Part shown: positions 8,374-26,766 of the stretch, piece after piece
How the letters are laid out: every line of letters begins with the position of its first letter
Position numbering within the stretch: position 1 is the first letter of the stretch
NCBI GenBank assembly: GCA_029856125.1
Contig: JAHQWJ010000148.1
Span: forward strand, 1-64,000
Direction of reading: 5' to 3'
DNA length: 64,000 bases
Source: Promethearchaeia archaeon
GTDB lineage: Archaea; Asgardarchaeota; Lokiarchaeia; Sigyniarchaeales; SOKP01
Program-made: the position numbers and the translations under genes
The notes under the pieces: generated by a model
The model's database searches: none
What the model was told of the DNA's origin: nothing
Seen by the model: the letters and a program-made list of their open reading frames with translations, nothing else

Positions 8374-9291
8374 GTGCTAGATGAAATTGAAGTGAATGAT
8401 GAAGACGATACGGAAGTTCCAAGAGAAAAAATTAAACTCCAGTTTCATTGGTACTTAAGTATTTTCTTTGTAATTTATTATTTATCTTATGTTGTTGCTG
8501 GAATCATTTTTATGTCTTATGTAATTGTTATATTTGTTCCAAATGTCTTGTTAGTAGATAACCTCATTACGATATTTACTAATCTTGATTCGTTATTGGC
8601 GTTTTTAGCTTTACCTTTAGTTATTATTGTCAGTTATTTATATCGCTTACTTACCGTAGGTTTAATAACTCGATTTTTCTGGAAATTTACTGAATATAGA
8701 AGTCCAACGAAGGATGGCGTAATTCCACGAAATATCGGTTCCAAGACCGCTAATTATTACCATATTAGATCTTTTATGCTAAAATACGGAAAAAACGCAT
8801 TTATGAAAGGAGTCTTCCCATGGTTAGCTAATTTTTACTTTAATTTTGTGGGTTCTGGTATCATTAAGAAAGGCTCCACATTAGAAGAATCAGTTGTTAC
8901 AGATAAAAATATAAATGTTGGAAGGAATTGCTACATCGGTGTTAATTCTGCATTATCATCTCACTTTGTAGAAGGAATATTTGGCAATATCGTCTTTTTC
9001 GAAATCAAATTGGGAGAAAACACCACATTAGGAGGATTTAACAATATTGCTCCTGGATGTGAACTAAGTGATAATTCATATCTTTTACCAATAGCGGCCG
9101 CGACAAAACATAATAAAACTAAAGGGAATAATTATTACTTCGGGATGCCATTCCGACGCATATTTAAGAAGAAAATTATGGATTACTTAAAAGTGAGCGA
9201 AGGGGATTTAGATCGAGCTGAGGAATTAAGAGCTAAACAAGAGAATGAAAAATTAAAAAGACAGTTAAAAGCTACAAATACTGAGAACTAA
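8374..9291 (+). CDS. Membrane-anchored left-handed beta-helix (hexapeptide) acyltransferase-like protein, paralog A1
   Basis: Two N-terminal TM segments; VGRNCYIGVNSALSSHFVEG, LGENTTLGG, YYFGMP. Confidence 0.75.
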   Translation: MLDEIEVNDEDDTEVPREKIKLQFHWYLSIFFVIYYLSYVVAGIIFMSYVIVIFVPNVLLVDNLITIFTNLDSLLAFLALPLVIIVSYLYRLLTVGLITRFFWKFTEYRSPTKDGVIPRNIGSKTANYYHIRSFMLKYGKNAFMKGVFPWLANFYFNFVGSGIIKKGSTLEESVVTDKNINVGRNCYIGVNSALSSHFVEGIFGNIVFFEIKLGENTTLGGFNNIAPGCELSDNSYLLPIAAATKHNKTKGNNYYFGMPFRRIFKKKIMDYLKVSEGDLDRAEELRAKQENEKLKRQLKATNTEN

Positions 9292-9308
9292 AAATTAAAT
9301 AAAGAGGA

Positions 9309-10217
9309 ATGTATAAGATTTTGATTGAAGATATAAGTGATTCTGGATCGGATATTCCACGGGAATTAGTTCACTTCCAGTATCATAAATACATGGCATT
9401 TTTCTTTGCTATCTATGTTGGTTCTTATTTAGTGCCAGTCATAGTTCTAATGTTTTACCTCTTCCTAATCTTAAAACCCTTGTTCTTTGCAGTAGAAAGT
9501 TTTATTATTATCCTTACGAGTTTTGATTCTTTAATAGTTTTTTTAACCATTCCACTTGTGGTTATTATATTCTATTTATCTCACCTATTTTTCTTAGGAG
9601 TGTTTACCCGAATCTTATGGAGGTACACTGAAAAGAAGAGTCCTACGAAGGACGGTATAATTCCTCGCGATATACAGTCAAAAACGGCAGATTTTTACCA
9701 CTACAGAAGTTTCATGATTAAATACGGAAAGAACGCTTTCATGAAAGGATTTTTCCCTTGGTTGGTTAATTGGTTTCTTAATTTTGTGGGTGCTGGTGTT
9801 GTAGATAAAGGCACAACATTTGAAGAATCGGTACTTAACGATAGAAATATAATCGTAGGGAAAAATTGCTATATAGGTGTAAACTCCACGCTATGTACTC
9901 ACGTAGTAGAGGGGATCTTCGGAAATATTATTTACTTTAAAATTGTATTAGGGGAAAATGTCACCCTTGGCGGATTCAATCAAATTGGACCCGGGGGCGA
10001 TTTAAAAGAAAATTCTTTCTTATTACCAATGGCCGCCGCAACAAAATTTAATACAACGAAGGGAGATAATTACTACTTCGGGATGCCATTACGTCGCATA
10101 TTTAAGAAGAAAATTATGAATTATTTAAAATTAAGCGAAGATGATTTATCTCGATCTGAAGAATTAAGAGTTAGACGAGAAGAAGAAAAATTAGGAAAAC
10201 ACAATAAAGTGAACTAA
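9309..10217 (+). CDS. Membrane-anchored LbetaH acyltransferase-like protein, paralog A2 (true start possibly TTG 9321)
   Basis: Same architecture as A1 and A3; VGKNCYIGVNSTLCTHVVEG. Confidence 0.75.
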   Translation: MYKILIEDISDSGSDIPRELVHFQYHKYMAFFFAIYVGSYLVPVIVLMFYLFLILKPLFFAVESFIIILTSFDSLIVFLTIPLVVIIFYLSHLFFLGVFTRILWRYTEKKSPTKDGIIPRDIQSKTADFYHYRSFMIKYGKNAFMKGFFPWLVNWFLNFVGAGVVDKGTTFEESVLNDRNIIVGKNCYIGVNSTLCTHVVEGIFGNIIYFKIVLGENVTLGGFNQIGPGGDLKENSFLLPMAAATKFNTTKGDNYYFGMPLRRIFKKKIMNYLKLSEDDLSRSEELRVRREEEKLGKHNKVN

Positions 10218-10255
10218 GAAAAATTTAGATAAAATAAAGAGGAATGTAGTAGATT

Positions 10256-11176
10256 TTGATTGAAGACACAAGTGATTCTGGACCTGAACTTCGAAAGGAA
10301 ATTGTTCAATTCCAATATCAGAAATATATAGCTTTCTTCTTTTTTATTTATGTAGGGTCTTATTTAGCGCCAGTCATAGCTCTAATGTTCTACCTTTTCT
10401 TAGTATTAAAACCCTTATTTTTAGAAGTAGATAACTTTATTGTTATCCTTACGAGTCTTGATTCATTAATAATTTTTTTAACAATTCCACTTGTGGTCGT
10501 TGGCTTCTATTTAACACACCTATTTTTCTTAGGAGTTTTTACAAGAATTTCATGGAAATTTACAGAGAAAAGAAGCCCATCAAAAGATGGAATAATTCCT
10601 CGCAATATCGCTTCTAAAACCGCAGATTATTACCACTATAGAAGTTTTATGATTAAATACGGAAAGAATACTTTCATGAAAGGAATTTTTCCTTGGCTGG
10701 CAAACTGGTTTTTTAATTTTGTAGGTGCTTGTGTTATTGATAAAGGCACAACATTTGAAGAATCTGTAAGTAATGATCGAAATATTGAAGTCGGAAGAAA
10801 TTGTTATATTGGAGTGAATTCGGCATTAGCATCTCATGTTGTTGAAGGTGTTTTTGGTAACATCGTCTATTTTAAAGTAAAAGCAAGAGATAATGTTACG
10901 TTTAGTGGTTTTAACGTTGTAGCTCCAGGGTGCGAGTTAAAAGATGATACTTACTTATTGCCAATGGCTGCAGCAACAAAATTTAACACAACTAAGGGGA
11001 ATAATTTCTATTATGGTATGCCTTTTAGACGGATCTTCAAGAAGAAACTAATAGATTACCTAAAAGTAAGTGAAGATGATTTGAACAGAGCAGAAGAACT
11101 AAGAATTAAGCAAGTAAACAAGAAACTGAACAGTTCGAATAAAGAAGAAATAAAAAGTAGAGAAAAATTAAATTAA
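10256..11176 (+). CDS. Membrane-anchored LbetaH acyltransferase-like protein, paralog A3
   Basis: VGRNCYIGVNSALASHVVEG, FYYGMP; TTG start. Confidence 0.75.
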   Translation: MIEDTSDSGPELRKEIVQFQYQKYIAFFFFIYVGSYLAPVIALMFYLFLVLKPLFLEVDNFIVILTSLDSLIIFLTIPLVVVGFYLTHLFFLGVFTRISWKFTEKRSPSKDGIIPRNIASKTADYYHYRSFMIKYGKNTFMKGIFPWLANWFFNFVGACVIDKGTTFEESVSNDRNIEVGRNCYIGVNSALASHVVEGVFGNIVYFKVKARDNVTFSGFNVVAPGCELKDDTYLLPMAAATKFNTTKGNNFYYGMPFRRIFKKKLIDYLKVSEDDLNRAEELRIKQVNKKLNSSNKEEIKSREKLN

Positions 11177-11194
11177 AATCATATGTGAAATAAA

Positions 11195-12109
11195 ATGACA
11201 GAAGAAGAAAAAGACAAGCAAGATATTGTTAAGGAAAATGATGAGACAGATGATGATTCAGATTTCGTTATAGACTTTACAACAAGTTCAGCAATAAATA
11301 AAGTAACTTTGAAATTTTTAGTTGTGTATATCCCAATATTTTGGTTTAGTGGTTTAGTAGTAGCAACTCTATGGTATGGATACACAGTAAGTCTAGTTCC
11401 TTGGATCATCAAATTATTATTTTTACCGTTATTATTGTTATTCTTTTCGTTTCTTTTCATATTTAGTTGCTTGTTCTTCAGTAAATTATTCCTTATATTT
11501 ATTAATCTTATTCACCTCCCTAAAGAAGGGATTTTCCGCACTGATTCGGGTAACCCTGACTTTGAGTTTTGGCGATTTAGAACTGAGATAAAGAAGATTA
11601 CTTTGTGGCTGATAAGAAATTGGCCTCTACCGTGGATTGATGTAATAGCTTTCCGCTGGTTTGGAATAAGGATGGATTTTTCAAGCCATTTAAACGACGC
11701 ATGGTGCGACGCAGAATTCATTTCTTTTGGAAAAAACGTGACTATCGGCCAAGGCGCGGCTATTATGAGCTCAATGGTTGTAGGTAATTACCTTATCATT
11801 AAAACGATCAGATTTGATGATTATTCGCTCATAGGAGGTCAGAGCACTATCGCCCCAGGAACGCATTTTGGAGAAGATACAGTGCTCGGTGCTGTTTCTG
11901 TAACAACCCTTAATCAAGAATTAGAATCTGGATGGATCTATTCTGGAATCCCCGCAAGAAAATTAAAACCTAACAAATACGCTGAAATGCGGAGGGATAT
12001 TATTCATAAAGTAGATGTTGACGAAGAAGAAGCAGTCGAAACCGAGCACGAAGTTAATATTGACGAAGATAAAAAGCACCTAATTAAAAAAAAGAGCGAG
12101 GATGATTGA
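11195..12109 (+). CDS. Membrane-anchored LbetaH acyltransferase-like protein, paralog B1 (His-less)
   Basis: 2 TM; PKEGIF..FEFW, FGKNVTIGQGAAIMSS, IGGQSTIAPG, WIYSGIPARK. Confidence 0.75.
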   Translation: MTEEEKDKQDIVKENDETDDDSDFVIDFTTSSAINKVTLKFLVVYIPIFWFSGLVVATLWYGYTVSLVPWIIKLLFLPLLLLFFSFLFIFSCLFFSKLFLIFINLIHLPKEGIFRTDSGNPDFEFWRFRTEIKKITLWLIRNWPLPWIDVIAFRWFGIRMDFSSHLNDAWCDAEFISFGKNVTIGQGAAIMSSMVVGNYLIIKTIRFDDYSLIGGQSTIAPGTHFGEDTVLGAVSVTTLNQELESGWIYSGIPARKLKPNKYAEMRRDIIHKVDVDEEEAVETEHEVNIDEDKKHLIKKKSEDD

Positions 12110-13007
12110 GATGAGCGTTCCTAATTCTATGCGTATTGGTCCTTTCTGTGCCTCGGTCTTAGTTAAGAAAAAATACTTGATAGCCTACATTTTTTTGATT
12201 TGGATAAGCATCCTTCCCGCTATTTTAGAAATTTGGTGGTACTGGCAGATGTTATGGTACGACCCTCGGCCACTCCATTTCTACGTGTTCCTGCCCCTTT
12301 ATTTGATAGTAATTTATGTTACAACTGTCTTTGCAGCCATCTTTTCCGCAAAAGTTATGTTAATGATCGCGAGTATTTTCCATAAGCCTAAAGAAGGAGT
12401 ATTTCTTCGAGATCCTTCTGATAGGGATTATCGTTATTGGAGCCTTAGAAACACGATAAAGAAATGGCCTACTTGGCTCGCACATAAGTTTCCATTTCCC
12501 TTCTTAGATAATATTTGCTTTAAAGTGTTTGGCGTAAAAACTAAATTTTCTAATTCCCTTTTTGAAGGCTGGGTAGATACAGAATTTATAGAGTTCGGTA
12601 AAAATGTAGTTATTGGACAAGGTGCTATAGTTCAGTCTTCGGTTATTATAGGGAATTTTTTAATTATTAGAAAAACAGTTATCGAAGAAAATGTCAGAGT
12701 TGGAGCACACGTGATTATTATGCCAGGAACTCACATAGGAAAAAACTGTATTTTAAATACGTGGTCTTCTACGATGGTAGGACAGGAATTAGAAGAAGGT
12801 TGGATATACAATGGAGGTCCGGCAAAAAAATTTAAGAGAAATAGGTTTTTTGAAGATATCCCAATTGAAAAACTTACTAAATCTATTGGAGACATGGGCG
12901 AATTATTAAAGAAATACGATGACCAAAGAGTCGCTAGAGTAATGAAGAAGCGGAGATCGATTAAGAGAAAAGATAAAGAAGAAAAAGACGCGGAAGAAAA
13001 AGAATAA
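12102..13007 (+). CDS. Membrane-anchored LbetaH acyltransferase-like protein, paralog B2 (His-less)
   Basis: 2 TM; PKEGVF..YRYW, FGKNVVIGQGAIVQSS, VGAHVIIMPG, WIYNGGPAKK; overlaps B1 stop. Confidence 0.75.
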   Translation: MIEMSVPNSMRIGPFCASVLVKKKYLIAYIFLIWISILPAILEIWWYWQMLWYDPRPLHFYVFLPLYLIVIYVTTVFAAIFSAKVMLMIASIFHKPKEGVFLRDPSDRDYRYWSLRNTIKKWPTWLAHKFPFPFLDNICFKVFGVKTKFSNSLFEGWVDTEFIEFGKNVVIGQGAIVQSSVIIGNFLIIRKTVIEENVRVGAHVIIMPGTHIGKNCILNTWSSTMVGQELEEGWIYNGGPAKKFKRNRFFEDIPIEKLTKSIGDMGELLKKYDDQRVARVMKKRRSIKRKDKEEKDAEEKE

Positions 13008-13009
13008 AC

Positions 13010-13798
13010 ATGAAGATCGGTTACGTACAAACTTCTCCAATTTTTGGTGAAATAACTCAAAACTTTAAACAAGTTGAAGATTTACTAGGAAATGCTAAAG
13101 GAGATTTGCTTGTTTTACCCGAACTATTCGCAATAGGATACACATTTATATCTAAAGAAGAAGCAGAATCTATGGCTGAAACTACTGAAGGAAAAACTGC
13201 CAATTTTTTAATAGGGTTAGCTAAAAAAACGGGTGCTGTGGTTGTAGGCGGATTCATAGAAAAAGATGGTAAACAAATTTATAATTCGTCTATGATAGTA
13301 TCTGGTAGCGAAGTTCTTGGGACTTATCGGAAACTCCACCTTTATTACAAAGAAAAACTGTGGTTTTCTCCGGGGAACAAACCTTTAGAAATATTTGAAG
13401 TAAAAAAAACAAAGGTAGGAATCATGATTTGTTTCGATTGGTTCTTTCCTGAGACTCTCCGAAGTCTTGCTCTTCTTGGAGCAGACATTATAGCTCACCC
13501 CGCTAACTTAGTGCTTCCGTATTGCCAAAGGGCGATGACAACTCGTTGTTTGGTAAATCGAGTTTTCGCTGTAACATGTAATAGGATTGGAAACGAAGCA
13601 AGGGGAGAAGATAATTTTGTATTTACGGGGGGTAGTCAAATTACTTCTTATAAAGGCGAAGTTCTCTCATCCGCCCCAAAAGATAAACCACATATTGACT
13701 TTGTTGAAATAGATGTTAAACAAGCGAGAGATAAAAACCTTAACAAATATAATAATGTATTTAGTGATAGAAGAACCGAGTTTTATTCTCTTGAATAA
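13010..13798 (+). CDS. Carbon-nitrogen hydrolase (nitrilase superfamily amidase/acyltransferase)
   Basis: Glu-Lys-Cys triad: LPELF, YRKLHL, ICFDWFFPE; starts 2 bp after B2. Confidence 0.9.
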   Translation: MKIGYVQTSPIFGEITQNFKQVEDLLGNAKGDLLVLPELFAIGYTFISKEEAESMAETTEGKTANFLIGLAKKTGAVVVGGFIEKDGKQIYNSSMIVSGSEVLGTYRKLHLYYKEKLWFSPGNKPLEIFEVKKTKVGIMICFDWFFPETLRSLALLGADIIAHPANLVLPYCQRAMTTRCLVNRVFAVTCNRIGNEARGEDNFVFTGGSQITSYKGEVLSSAPKDKPHIDFVEIDVKQARDKNLNKYNNVFSDRRTEFYSLE

Positions 13799-13814
13799 TA
13801 GATAGAGTGATGTT

Positions 13815-14822
13815 ATGAAAGCGGCTGTATTCGACGGGCAAGATATCTCCATTAAGGAAGTACCGATACCAAGACTTGAAGATTCTCAAGTTTTAATTCA
13901 AATAAAAGCGTCAGGAATATGTGGGACCGATATAGCTATAGCAAAAGGGGATTTACCAACGCCAACGCCGATCATTTTAGGTCACGAGTTTGCAGGTGAA
14001 GTTATAGAAGTCGGTAAGAAAATTAACTCAAACTGGGAAGGAAAACATGTCACATCCGAAATTAATAGCAACATCGATTTCAGCTGTTATTACTGTCAAC
14101 GAAATATTTTCTCTCAATGCCTATCGCGCAAAGCCTTAGGTATAGATATTAATGGCTCCTTTGCTGAATACATAGTTGTTGAGCCATATATGCTTCACGA
14201 AATACCGAGAAAGATTTCTTACAAGGAAGCAACATTTATAGAACCTTTAGCAGCAGCGTATCAAACATTTGAAATGATGCCATTAGCAGATGAAGACAAA
14301 ATTATCGCAATCTATGGGCTTGGAAAATTAGGTTTATTACTAGCCCAAGTGGCCTTAGTTAAAGGATTGGATGTAATAGCAGTTGATGGTTCAGATAAAA
14401 AGCTTTCTATGGCTGAAAAGTATGGTGCAAAGCAACTAATTAACCGTTTTGAGGTAGAAAATATAAGTGATGAAATCAAAGGTTCAACTGATAATCTTGG
14501 AGCAGATATTGTCGTAGATACTACAGGCAATCCAGAAGCTCTTATAGATATCGTTGCTTCGTGTAAAACGCGAGGTAAAATCCACATTAAAAGTACTCAT
14601 GGATTAAGAACTCCAATCAATCTTACTGATATAGTAGTTCGAGAAATCACCGTTTACAGTAGTAGATGTGGTCCATTTGATAAAGCAATTGAGGGACTAA
14701 GCTCTGGAGATATTAAAGTTAAAAGTTTAGTCTCCAAAATGTATGACTTAGAAAAAATTAGAGAAGCATTTGCTGCTTACGATGAAGATCCAGATTTTAT
14801 AAAAGCAGTTATCATAATTTAG
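13815..14822 (+). CDS. Zinc-dependent medium-chain alcohol dehydrogenase
   Basis: GICGTD, GHEFAG, C-x2-C..C structural Zn site, EPLAAA, GLGKLG. Confidence 0.9.
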   Translation: MKAAVFDGQDISIKEVPIPRLEDSQVLIQIKASGICGTDIAIAKGDLPTPTPIILGHEFAGEVIEVGKKINSNWEGKHVTSEINSNIDFSCYYCQRNIFSQCLSRKALGIDINGSFAEYIVVEPYMLHEIPRKISYKEATFIEPLAAAYQTFEMMPLADEDKIIAIYGLGKLGLLLAQVALVKGLDVIAVDGSDKKLSMAEKYGAKQLINRFEVENISDEIKGSTDNLGADIVVDTTGNPEALIDIVASCKTRGKIHIKSTHGLRTPINLTDIVVREITVYSSRCGPFDKAIEGLSSGDIKVKSLVSKMYDLEKIREAFAAYDEDPDFIKAVIII

Positions 14823-24126: not shown

Positions 24127-26766
24127 ATGAAAAATCTAAAGAATTGTATAATTTTATCTGTATTTGTATCAATACTTTTGATGCCAATCACTTTTCATCT
24201 AATAGATATACAAGGGAATAATAAAAATGATGAGCTAGAATTTGGTTATCTAAATTCTGCAGGTTCTTGGGTGTTAGCCCCATTTGCAATTAATCCCTAC
24301 GGCACGCGAGACTATACATGGATTGAAGCTAATGCAACTGAATGGTGTTCTGGAGCAGGAACGGAATTAGATCCTTGGATAATAGAAAATGTTACTATTG
24401 ATTCTGGAGGCTTAAGTCATTGTTTAGAAATAGGTCAATCAGTTGATTATTTTATCATTAGAAATTGTACGTTTAACAACGCTTATCCAAATTATGGTAT
24501 TTATAGTTGGAGTACGAGTAATGGGATTATCGAAGATTGCACTTTTTTTGATAACTTATATGGGGTATACATAAGCGGTAGTGCTGAGAATAATACGCTT
24601 CAACATAATTATTTCTATAACAATACTGGAGCAAACGTTAGGCTTTCCGGTTCGTCTACTTGTATTAATAATACTATTTCCAACAATATATTCGTTAATC
24701 GCCTTACTGCCACACTCCCAACAGGGCTTAGGATTCAAGGATACAACAATAAAATAATCAACAATACGGTGGATAATTTTTTCTGGGGAGTAAATTTAGA
24801 CTATGCTCACGATACAATAATAAAATCAAACACTTTCATTTCATCGTGGCGAGGGATATCTATGGGAAGCAACAATTTTAATGCCACAGTTTTTAATAAC
24901 ACGATAAGAGATAATCACAATGATTATGGCGTGTATGTGAATGGTAATGGATCACTATTTTATAGGAACAGATTCATTAACAATAACATAAACGCAAAAG
25001 ATAGTGGTAATTTCAATCGTTGGGATAATGAAGTAATAGGGAACTATTGGGACGATTATGGAGGATTAGATCTCAACGATGATGGTATAGGTGATACGGC
25101 TTATATTCTTCCTGATTCTGGAGGTTCACAAGATAATTATCCTATCTGGGACGATGGTTTTAATGGTACTAAAATTCATATTGATGATACTGGTGTTAAT
25201 TCATTTGATTGGGAATCTGCTTCTAAACTGATTTGGTGCACTGGTTCCGGAACGTACGATGATCCTTACACTATCCAAGACTTAGCGATTGACGCTGGTA
25301 ATGTTGGTTCACCTATTTTTATTGAAAGCTCAAGCGTCTATTTCGTTATAGAAAACTGTAATTTGACAAATTCTCAAGCAACTGGAGAGGACGCAGGTAT
25401 TAAGTTTGAAGATGTATACAATGGCAAAATAGTTGAGAACAATATAACAGATAACTATGCCGGTGTCAAATTAATACGTAGCGATAATAACTCGATTTCA
25501 GCAAACTATATCTACGATAATACAGGGCAAGGAATAGTTCTTCAACAAAGCAAATATAATGTGATTGCGGGTAATACTGCAAACAATAGTAATTATTATG
25601 GTCTAATAATTGTTTCCGCGAGTCATAATAATACAATAGAAGAAAACACTTTTGGCAATAATAAGGGAGCTAGTGGATACGGTTCAGGAATTAAAATATC
25701 TGGTAGCAACGATTGTGAAATATCAGAGAATCTGTTAAGCGATAACGATCAAGGAATTAGGATTACTGATAATTCCCATGGCAATAAATTCTACGACAAT
25801 GTAATTCATAACAACGCAAAGTATGGCATTCTGATACAAGATCTTACTAGAAATTGTAATAATTCCGTTTTTTACAACAATAGCCTCAAAAATCCTCTAG
25901 GAATTAACGCTTACGATAATGGATCGAATTCTGAATGGGATAATGGGATACGTGGAAATTTCTGGAATGATTATGAAGGTGCTGATAATAACGGAGATGG
26001 AATTGGAGACACACCATATTTAATCAGTGGTGATGCTAATAGACAAGACAATTATCCAATATGGAACAAAGGTGACGAAATATACCCTACAATATCAATT
26101 AATTCTCCCTCTGGAGGATCTATCTTTGGAACTGATGCTCCTACGTATAGTCTAAATATCTTTGACTTGTACTTAAATTCGTCTTGGTATACACTAAATA
26201 ACTCAGCAACCAGATATTTTTTCACACCGAGTAATGGAAATAATGTCGTCATTATTGATGAAACCGGATGGGATATTTTTTCTGATGGATCAATGCTAAT
26301 GACTTTTTACATAAACGATACTGGCGGGAATATTGCAAGTGTCTCAAATATGATCGAAAAAGATGTAACCAATCCTACGATTGCATTAAATTCTCCTATT
26401 GGAGGTACAGTATTTGGTTCTGACGCTCCGCAATTCAACTTAACAATATTCGACTTAAATTTACACGATGCATGGTATACAATAGGCTCTTCTGTTACGC
26501 CACACTCTTTCTCGCCTAGTAATGGTATAAACATTATCCCGATTGACGAAAGTAGCTGGGATACCCTCCCTGATGGTAGTATTACAATTGATTTCTTTGT
26601 AAATGATATCGCTGGAAATATTCACACTATTCAAGTTATTCTTACTAAGGACCTACCTTCAAGTGATCCAGAACCAGCAATTCCTTTTGGAGATTATTAC
26701 ATCTTATTTCTTGGAATTGGAATCGCCGCGATATTAGTAGTAGAGCGTAAAAAAAGGAAAAAGTAA
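24127..26766 (+). CDS. Secreted/surface NosD-like right-handed beta-helix protein with Ig-like repeats and Loki-CTERM-like anchor
   Basis: Signal peptide; two PbH1 blocks each ending GN(Y/F)W.DY.G.D.N.DGIGDT.Y; two PTI.(I/L)NSP.GG..FG.DAP repeats; C-terminal IPFGDYYILFLGIGIAAILVVERKKRKK. Confidence 0.85.
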   Translation: MKNLKNCIILSVFVSILLMPITFHLIDIQGNNKNDELEFGYLNSAGSWVLAPFAINPYGTRDYTWIEANATEWCSGAGTELDPWIIENVTIDSGGLSHCLEIGQSVDYFIIRNCTFNNAYPNYGIYSWSTSNGIIEDCTFFDNLYGVYISGSAENNTLQHNYFYNNTGANVRLSGSSTCINNTISNNIFVNRLTATLPTGLRIQGYNNKIINNTVDNFFWGVNLDYAHDTIIKSNTFISSWRGISMGSNNFNATVFNNTIRDNHNDYGVYVNGNGSLFYRNRFINNNINAKDSGNFNRWDNEVIGNYWDDYGGLDLNDDGIGDTAYILPDSGGSQDNYPIWDDGFNGTKIHIDDTGVNSFDWESASKLIWCTGSGTYDDPYTIQDLAIDAGNVGSPIFIESSSVYFVIENCNLTNSQATGEDAGIKFEDVYNGKIVENNITDNYAGVKLIRSDNNSISANYIYDNTGQGIVLQQSKYNVIAGNTANNSNYYGLIIVSASHNNTIEENTFGNNKGASGYGSGIKISGSNDCEISENLLSDNDQGIRITDNSHGNKFYDNVIHNNAKYGILIQDLTRNCNNSVFYNNSLKNPLGINAYDNGSNSEWDNGIRGNFWNDYEGADNNGDGIGDTPYLISGDANRQDNYPIWNKGDEIYPTISINSPSGGSIFGTDAPTYSLNIFDLYLNSSWYTLNNSATRYFFTPSNGNNVVIIDETGWDIFSDGSMLMTFYINDTGGNIASVSNMIEKDVTNPTIALNSPIGGTVFGSDAPQFNLTIFDLNLHDAWYTIGSSVTPHSFSPSNGINIIPIDESSWDTLPDGSITIDFFVNDIAGNIHTIQVILTKDLPSSDPEPAIPFGDYYILFLGIGIAAILVVERKKRKK

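Follow-up and report, generated by a model that had tools for sequence, protein, structure and literature searches.

Five consecutive genes in a 64,000-nt stretch of DNA from a Promethearchaeia archaeon (contig JAHQWJ010000148.1, hereafter the window; G+C ~33%) encode related proteins with left-handed beta-helix (LbetaH) domains. Three of them (A1, A2, and A3) carry a His that the other two (B1 and B2) lack. Why are His-bearing and His-less members of one family encoded side by side? Probably the five genes code for subunits of a three-part membrane enzyme, previously undescribed, that is built like the polymer-making end of bacterial polylysine synthetase (Pls) and in which only the A type bears the His. 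Sequence comparisons make it likely that this enzyme is a membrane-anchored LbetaH acyltransferase heterotrimer of A, B1, and B2, with A as its one canonical catalytic subunit.

The genes, ~300 codons each, are flanked on one side by a divergently oriented gene for class II ribonucleotide reductase and on the other by a C-N hydrolase gene. A1 and A2 are separated by 17 bases, A2 and A3 by 38, and A3 and B1 by 18; B1 and B2 overlap by 8 bases. In each protein the N-terminal ~70 residues are hydrophobic and hexapeptide repeats are located C-terminally. Hexapep is the sole Pfam match of the five, and only B2 scores above its cut-off. Homologs carry the names Lokiarchaeota or Promethearchaeota.

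8374-9291, + strand: A1, 305 aa; membrane hairpin, linker helices, and LbetaH domain; His-bearing; weak Hexapep match; A clade in the unit tree
9309-10217, + strand: A2, 302 aa; His-bearing unit, from open reading frame, alignment, and sliding identity
10256-11176, + strand: A3, 306 aa; His-bearing unit; TTG start
11195-12109, + strand: B1, 304 aa; His-less; Ser193 at the catalytic column; B-specific His107 in LIHLPKEG (11513-11515)
12102-13007, + strand: B2, 301 aa; His-less; Ser180 at the catalytic column; B-specific His94 (12381-12383); B2-specific His203 (12708-12710)

A preliminary description of this DNA had reported the motif IGVNSxLxxH(F/V)VEG in A1-A3, with Ser in place of the His in B1 and B2, and had placed this His at the general-base position of LbetaH acyltransferases. 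A MAFFT alignment and codon coordinates confirm the motif and the Ser. After the His, A1-A3 also share a two-residue insert that is missing from B1 and B2.

8935-8976, + strand: A1 motif IGVNSALSSHFVEG; His197 codon 8962-8964
9873-9914, + strand: A2 motif IGVNSTLCTHVVEG; His198 codon 9900-9902
10808-10849, + strand: A3 motif IGVNSALASHVVEG; His194 codon 10835-10837
11744-11785, + strand: B1 motif IGQGAAIMSSMVVG; Ser in place of His, codon 11771-11773
12612-12653, + strand: B2 motif IGQGAIVQSSVIIG; Ser in place of His, codon 12639-12641

The placement at the general-base position is likewise borne out. An A-clade profile (26 proteins) puts the His of A on His115 of the galactoside O-acetyltransferase LacA, in the 'GH' of 1kqa (E 1.3e-5). 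Single-sequence alignments to maltose acetyltransferases (MAT) agree, with A2 His198 aligned to the His of the maltose and galactoside enzymes. LacA His115 is established as the catalytic general base. In MAT and LacA this His lies on the coil before an extended loop; A1-A3 share that arrangement, whereas B1 and B2 have Ser there. Both hallmarks of the superfamily, hexapeptide repeats and the LbetaH fold, are present.

The His/Ser split extends beyond the window. A tree of 164 units extracted from 40 related loci contains three clades: A (60 units, support 0.93), B1 (54, 0.99), and B2 (46, 0.96). His is present in 98% of the A units, and not one of the 54 B1 and 46 B2 units has His at the catalytic column, which holds Ser in 93% of B1 and 43% of B2. 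The residue three positions after the His is E, D, Q, or S in the A clade, Glu being common and not invariant. Across multi-gene loci of 27 related Lokiarchaeia genomes, 63 of 179 units keep the LbetaH His and 116 lack it. Because the pattern holds across related loci, the split is a clade rule and not chance among five paralogs.

Gene order and gene fusions link the three clades to one another. All 25 unfused sets have the order A, B1, B2, mostly with one gene of each, and their junctions often overlap (-4, -8, -11). Ten further sets consist of an A~B1 fusion followed by B2 and 15 of a B2~A fusion followed by B1, and three proteins (P0138, P0272, and P0309) are full-length B2~A~B1 triple fusions. 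A single cyclic order is kept by all arrangements, fused or not, and no like-with-like fusion was seen among the fused proteins examined. With three A genes, the window lies at the far end of a local trend: its closest relatives have A-A-B1-B2 (G071 and G113) or A-B1-B2 (G083).

To view three units in one chain, we used AlphaFold2 with an alignment of 78 fused proteins as input and the natural triple fusion P0138, which represents a divergent sub-type and not the window subunits, as target. The model has a mean predicted local distance difference test score (pLDDT) of 89.3 and a predicted template modelling score (pTM) of 0.90 over 797 residues. The same plan appears in it three times: a hairpin of transmembrane (TM) helices leads through a strand and two helices to an LbetaH of five coils. 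The unit plan of the window proteins rests on their alignment to the family of P0138. A pTM this high over 797 residues argues that P0138 is one rigid assembly, and offers indirect support for a compact packing of the three units.

A Foldseek search with the P0138 model returned maltose and galactoside O-acetyltransferases first (E 8.5e-6, TM-score 0.6 on the target). VIA gave Z-scores of 14-16 to LbetaH acyltransferases, at a root-mean-square deviation of ~2-3 Å over ~100 residues, and of ~16 to QdtC, serine acetyltransferases, and PglD. No solved membrane homolog was found by Foldseek, by VIA on the Foldseek matches, or by VIA of 48,161 representatives; these returned soluble LbetaH domains only, with at most ~150 aligned residues. 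MAT and LacA thus resemble the window system as the best structural matches to the fusion model and through LacA His115, with which the His of A aligns. However, they are soluble homotrimers with three identical sites, whereas the window subunits are membrane-anchored and of three kinds, one of which has the His.

The unit plan recurs in Pls and PosA, the bacterial epsilon-poly-L-lysine and delta-poly-L-ornithine synthetases. An AlphaFold model of the PosA polymerization domain shows it three times, each repeat having two membrane helices, one strand, two further helices, and an LbetaH of five coils, and the repeats pack with approximately threefold symmetry (PMC10522769). Searches of the PDB and the open literature found this model alone for the domain, and neither a solved structure nor an assignment of catalytic residues for Pls/PosA. 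The NCBIfam model of the Pls/PosA terminal domain, TIGR02353, matches B1 (36 bits, E 2.7e-9) and B2 (41.9 bits, E 4.2e-11), and finds no match in A1-A3; its curated cut-off is 423.1 bits. Among plasmids, B2 has its best tblastn match in the part of a Streptomyces pls gene that encodes C3. When A, B1, and B2 are each compared with the Pls repeats C1, C2, and C3, hhalign probabilities reach 96-98%, with E-values from 4e-9 to 2e-14. In nine diverse Pls/PosA proteins, C3 alone keeps the His and an acid three residues on, invariant as Q[T/A/S]H..E[D/E], and nothing is conserved at that His column in C1 and C2. The His is confined to C3 in Pls/PosA and to A here, so both lineages follow the rule of a single His-bearing unit per trimer.

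The two systems thus share the repeat unit, a significant sequence relation, three units per assembly, and a His-x-x-acid signature in one unit only. They differ in that the window units are encoded by separate genes (in relatives, also by two- and three-unit fusions) and not as three tandem repeats of one polypeptide, in that the window proteins lack adenylation and thiolation (PP-binding) domains, and in that their scores fall far under the TIGR02353 cut-off. One-to-one orthology of A, B1, and B2 with C3, C1, and C2 was considered and rejected, as there is no preferred profile pairing and the Pls units cluster together. B1 and B2 match each other with a profile E-value of ~1e-83 and A with ~1e-30, the three Pls units group together in the tree, and stand-alone Asgard homologs (singletons) are nearer to Pls units than the triplet subunits are. 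Since B1 and B2 are closest to each other, no C1-C3 pairing emerges, and the Pls units form a group, we regard the Asgard heterotrimer and the Pls pseudo-trimer as parallel inventions; the sequences point to a triplication in the Asgard units independent of Pls, and not to the splitting of a fused ancestor.

These observations support a model in which each subunit would correspond to one Pls/PosA repeat: two long membrane helices form a hairpin, followed by a short strand, a pair of helices, and an LbetaH domain in the cytoplasm. The charges bordering the hairpin suggest a cytoplasmic location for both the N-terminus and the LbetaH. We infer that one A, one B1, and one B2 would assemble with pseudo-threefold symmetry, always following one another in the cyclic order A, B1, B2. 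A alone would supply the His and the acidic residue three positions on, serving as general base toward an acceptor amine or hydroxyl. Because only A provides the His, such a trimer would have a single canonical active site, located at the interface of A and a B neighbor. B1 and B2 would complete the trimer and its six-helix membrane bundle, and would probably add to the site or to the substrate path through invariant His residues of their own at the membrane boundary.

An A+B1+B2 heterotrimer resembling the fused C1-C2-C3 pseudo-trimer had been proposed in the preliminary description. The gene triplets, their overlapping junctions, fusions in one order only, the triple-fusion model, and the His confined to C3 support this proposal well, albeit indirectly. 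Its expectation that other genomes keep one B1 and one B2 with a variable number of A genes holds in part: extra A genes occur here (three) and in two relatives (two each), but some A~B1 fusions or A+B1 genes have no adjacent B2. Subunits occurring alone had been named as evidence to the contrary. We found no B1 or B2 without an adjacent A unit; His-bearing relatives do stand alone elsewhere, but as a separate clade.

Several points weigh against this heterotrimer with a single canonical site. Four type-3 sets (L047, L074, L075, and L076), in which A is the second unit of a B2~A fusion, have Gln in place of the His (LLTNQLWD). Their A units argue that the His is not indispensable everywhere; these sets may be inactive or use another mechanism, and L077, P0138, and P0141, to which they are related, retain the His. 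For one A+B1 pair and some A~B1 fusions there is no B2 next to them. In some loci, orphan A~B1 fusions without their own B2 adjoin complete sets. We infer the threefold packing, and where the His sits in it, from the pTM of P0138 and the published PosA model. B units have invariant His residues of their own and might be catalytic. Finally, the flanking genes are heterogeneous and give no consistent pathway clue.

The preliminary description had cast B1 and B2 as a constant scaffold, with a compensating His of the B paralogs in the active site as evidence to the contrary; given the B-specific His residues, a purely scaffolding role is no more than a hypothesis. These residues raise the possibility that B1 and B2 use them to complete the site of A or to carry out a second reaction, for instance at the membrane boundary. 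A His directly after the second TM helix (TM2; NLIHKPKEG) is conserved in 96% of B1 and 96% of B2 units. This position is Ser in A units and is not conserved in singletons or Pls units, so that the post-TM2 His is absent from A units and from all singletons. It is also strictly exclusive with the LbetaH His: among the 179 units of multi-unit loci, the LbetaH His alone is found in 63 and the post-TM2 His alone in 107, whereas 9 have neither and none has both, a count that is descriptive because related sequences are not independent. One coil further on, 44 of 46 B2 units have a B2-specific His (GAH), His203 in the window B2, and the B genes evolve more slowly than the A genes. In the P0138 model, the post-TM2 His is five residues ahead of the strand that, in the PosA model, pairs with the loop interrupting coils 2 and 3 (PMC10522769). 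That loop begins at the His of A, so the B His may contribute to the active site. Yet an invariant His in such a position, at the end of a helix, may have a structural role or bind lipid head groups, and Pls C1 and C2 have no equivalent conserved His; we consider composite or multiple active sites unlikely. A true Pls-like polymerase, making an isopeptide poly-amino acid or related polyamide from a monomer activated in trans, with the C-N hydrolase as amidase, would account for the homology and shared unit plan with the Pls/PosA polymerization domain and for the His-x-x-acid in common with C3. The C-N hydrolase gene directly follows B2 in six loci (the window and five related ones), which recalls the peptidase gene that comes after pls in Streptomyces. 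But most sets lack the hydrolase, no adenylating enzyme adjoins any of ~50 sets, no full Pls/PosA-type protein scores above the TIGR02353 cut-off in 151 Asgard genomes, and the whole 99%-complete genome, which encodes 22 AMP-binding enzymes, contains no PP-binding (PF00550) carrier-protein domain, making a polymerase of this kind quite improbable. For the A+B1+B2 heterotrimer, the lack of carrier-protein domains makes acyl-CoA the most likely pantetheine-linked donor, and a membrane-associated or exported acceptor is probable.

LbetaH enzymes are typically homotrimers, and A1-A3 could be three active enzymes of this type, with B1 and B2 as separate pseudo-enzymes or regulators that share the operon. 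The three A genes of the window exceed a 1:1:1 ratio, and His-bearing members of the wider family do stand alone. Other Asgard families have relatives that are scattered as single genes; the His is present in all 14 that were examined, and likewise in two singletons examined in the window's own order, one on contig C126 of the same genome and one in a sister-family genome, as would be expected of homotrimers. Such singletons have the same plan of two TM helices and an LbetaH, with TIGR02353 as best NCBIfam match (E 1e-19 to 1e-23), but they are single dispersed genes whose products are presumably homotrimers; they lack the B-type His after TM2 and form a separate clade. For the window genes, independent homotrimers are very unlikely: 1:1:1 synteny is near-universal, fusions join only unlike units, always in the one cyclic order, the triple fusions combine all three types once each, and the one modeled, P0138, folds as one body (pTM 0.90). 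A membrane-attached LbetaH heterotrimer of mixed subunits has a conceptual analog. The gamma-carbonic-anhydrase (CA) module of plant and protist mitochondrial complex I combines CA subunits with CA-like subunits that lack catalytic residues; like the proposed enzyme, it mixes residue-keeping and residue-losing subunits at a membrane, and the CA-like subunit 6x89_L2 is among the best PDB sequence matches of B2 (E 2.1e-5). It differs in having a zinc site and no acyl transfer and in its membrane anchoring, and only the LbetaH coils are similar, weakly so.

If A, B1, and B2 form a heterotrimer, three A genes sharing a single B1/B2 pair would allow up to three isoforms of the complex. That A1-A3 would confer different substrate specificities, as the preliminary description proposed, is a hypothesis. 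The short intergenic gaps argue for co-transcription, in which case A would exceed B1 and B2. All five genes are under purifying selection, with ratios of nonsynonymous to synonymous substitution rates (dN/dS) of 0.09-0.20 relative to their G071 and G113 orthologs. A1 (dN/dS 0.10-0.20) is the ortholog of the first A gene in G071, G113, and G083, and A3 of the second A gene of G071 (dS 0.52, dN/dS 0.18). A2 (dN/dS 0.11-0.14) has no direct ortholog in two close relatives, and the A2/A3 split predates the divergence of the G071 lineage (dS ~1.4 vs 0.5). A1 shares 39-42% identity with A2 and A3 in the membrane hairpin, 73-76% in the linker, and 70% in the LbetaH. Because A1 diverges most in the hairpin and not in the LbetaH, any functional difference among A isoforms is more likely membrane-embedded than located in the cytoplasmic pocket, and the isoforms would differ chiefly in the membrane hairpin of A. 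The fuller proposal, an obligate A-B1-B2 enzyme with a single active site that Lokiarchaeia made independently from stand-alone Pls-type units, with a swappable A (three genes here, extra A~B1 modules elsewhere) giving isoforms for different membrane-embedded or exported substrates, the B His in a new role at the membrane boundary in place of the lost LbetaH His, and the C3 His as the catalytic residue of Pls/PosA, is tentative, and we rate it somewhat short of probable.

Two features of the A genes stand apart. A2 looks like a mosaic by sliding identity, with ~80-85% identity to A3 over its first 480 bases and a closer match to A1 (82-83%) over its last 150; bases 480-660, around the His coil, are the most divergent from both. 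The A3 frame reads ATG TAG TAG ATT TTG at 10244-10258, the ATG TAG TAG (10244-10252) following a ribosome-binding-like site, AAGAGGA; the G071 ortholog has ATT TAT TAG ATT TTG at this place. As the ancestral ATG runs at once into two stops, A3 must start at the TTG at 10256, and the upstream ATG TAG TAG may be a start-stop mini-ORF (open reading frame) or simply reflect a shifted start.

The gene that follows B2 begins 2 bases past its end and is probably on the same transcript.

13010-13798, + strand: C-N hydrolase gene; Pfam CN_hydrolase, E 8e-38

A gene for a Zn-dependent alcohol dehydrogenase starts 16 bases past it (the pair spans 13010-14822). Both genes and the upstream ribonucleotide reductase gene are syntenic in several relatives. 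We rejected a pathway assignment from flanking genes, since these vary among loci; they include C-N hydrolase, Zn-dependent alcohol dehydrogenase, DUF1295, UvdE, PNPOx-like, metallophosphatase, and ThiI-like genes. A gene for a DUF1295 membrane protein (steroid-reductase/ICMT-like fold) directly follows orphan A~B1 fusions or the A+B1 pair (L025, 13214-14047 on the - strand; homologs in L026, L037, L059, and others), and an ICMT-family gene is located two genes downstream of a Rhizobium Pls/PosA gene (L085).

Elsewhere in the same genome, contig C28 (1192-5639, L080) contains a two-gene variant that encodes a 286-aa His unit and a 246-aa unit with Phe and the B-type His; genes for a 534-aa metallophosphoesterase and a ThiI/THUMP protein follow this pair with overlapping junctions. 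A fused three-unit form is absent from this genome. An 879-aa ORF in the window (24127-26766) was considered as a fused C1-C2-C3 and rejected, the protein being unrelated to the LbetaH genes; its N-terminus is signal-like, it contains two long regions of Asn/Gly-rich repeats, and its C-terminal part has duplicated domains and a membrane anchor.

The family was found in 25 of 25 sampled genomes of the window's family and in 2 of 2 of the sister family, most of which have 5 to 15 or more matches each. A2 matches only 158 clusters out of 1.84 billion representatives, and an ESM Atlas search returned Promethearchaeota clusters, one Bdellovibrionota hexapeptide cluster, and nothing else. This multi-copy protein family, universal in one Asgard family with ~5 to 15 or more units in each genome, carries no annotation beyond 'hypothetical' or 'acetyltransferase-like'.

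In the Asgard system, the Pls/PosA polymerization domain is naturally dissected into separate subunits. From comparison alone, one His-bearing unit per trimer is a conserved state in two independent lineages; if the same logic holds in both, the C3 His would be the catalytic residue of the bacterial polylysine and polyornithine synthetases. The locus offers a clean example of how a homo-oligomeric enzyme can give rise to a hetero-oligomer of catalytic and non-catalytic paralogs, and in these archaea the family may modify the cell envelope or lipids.

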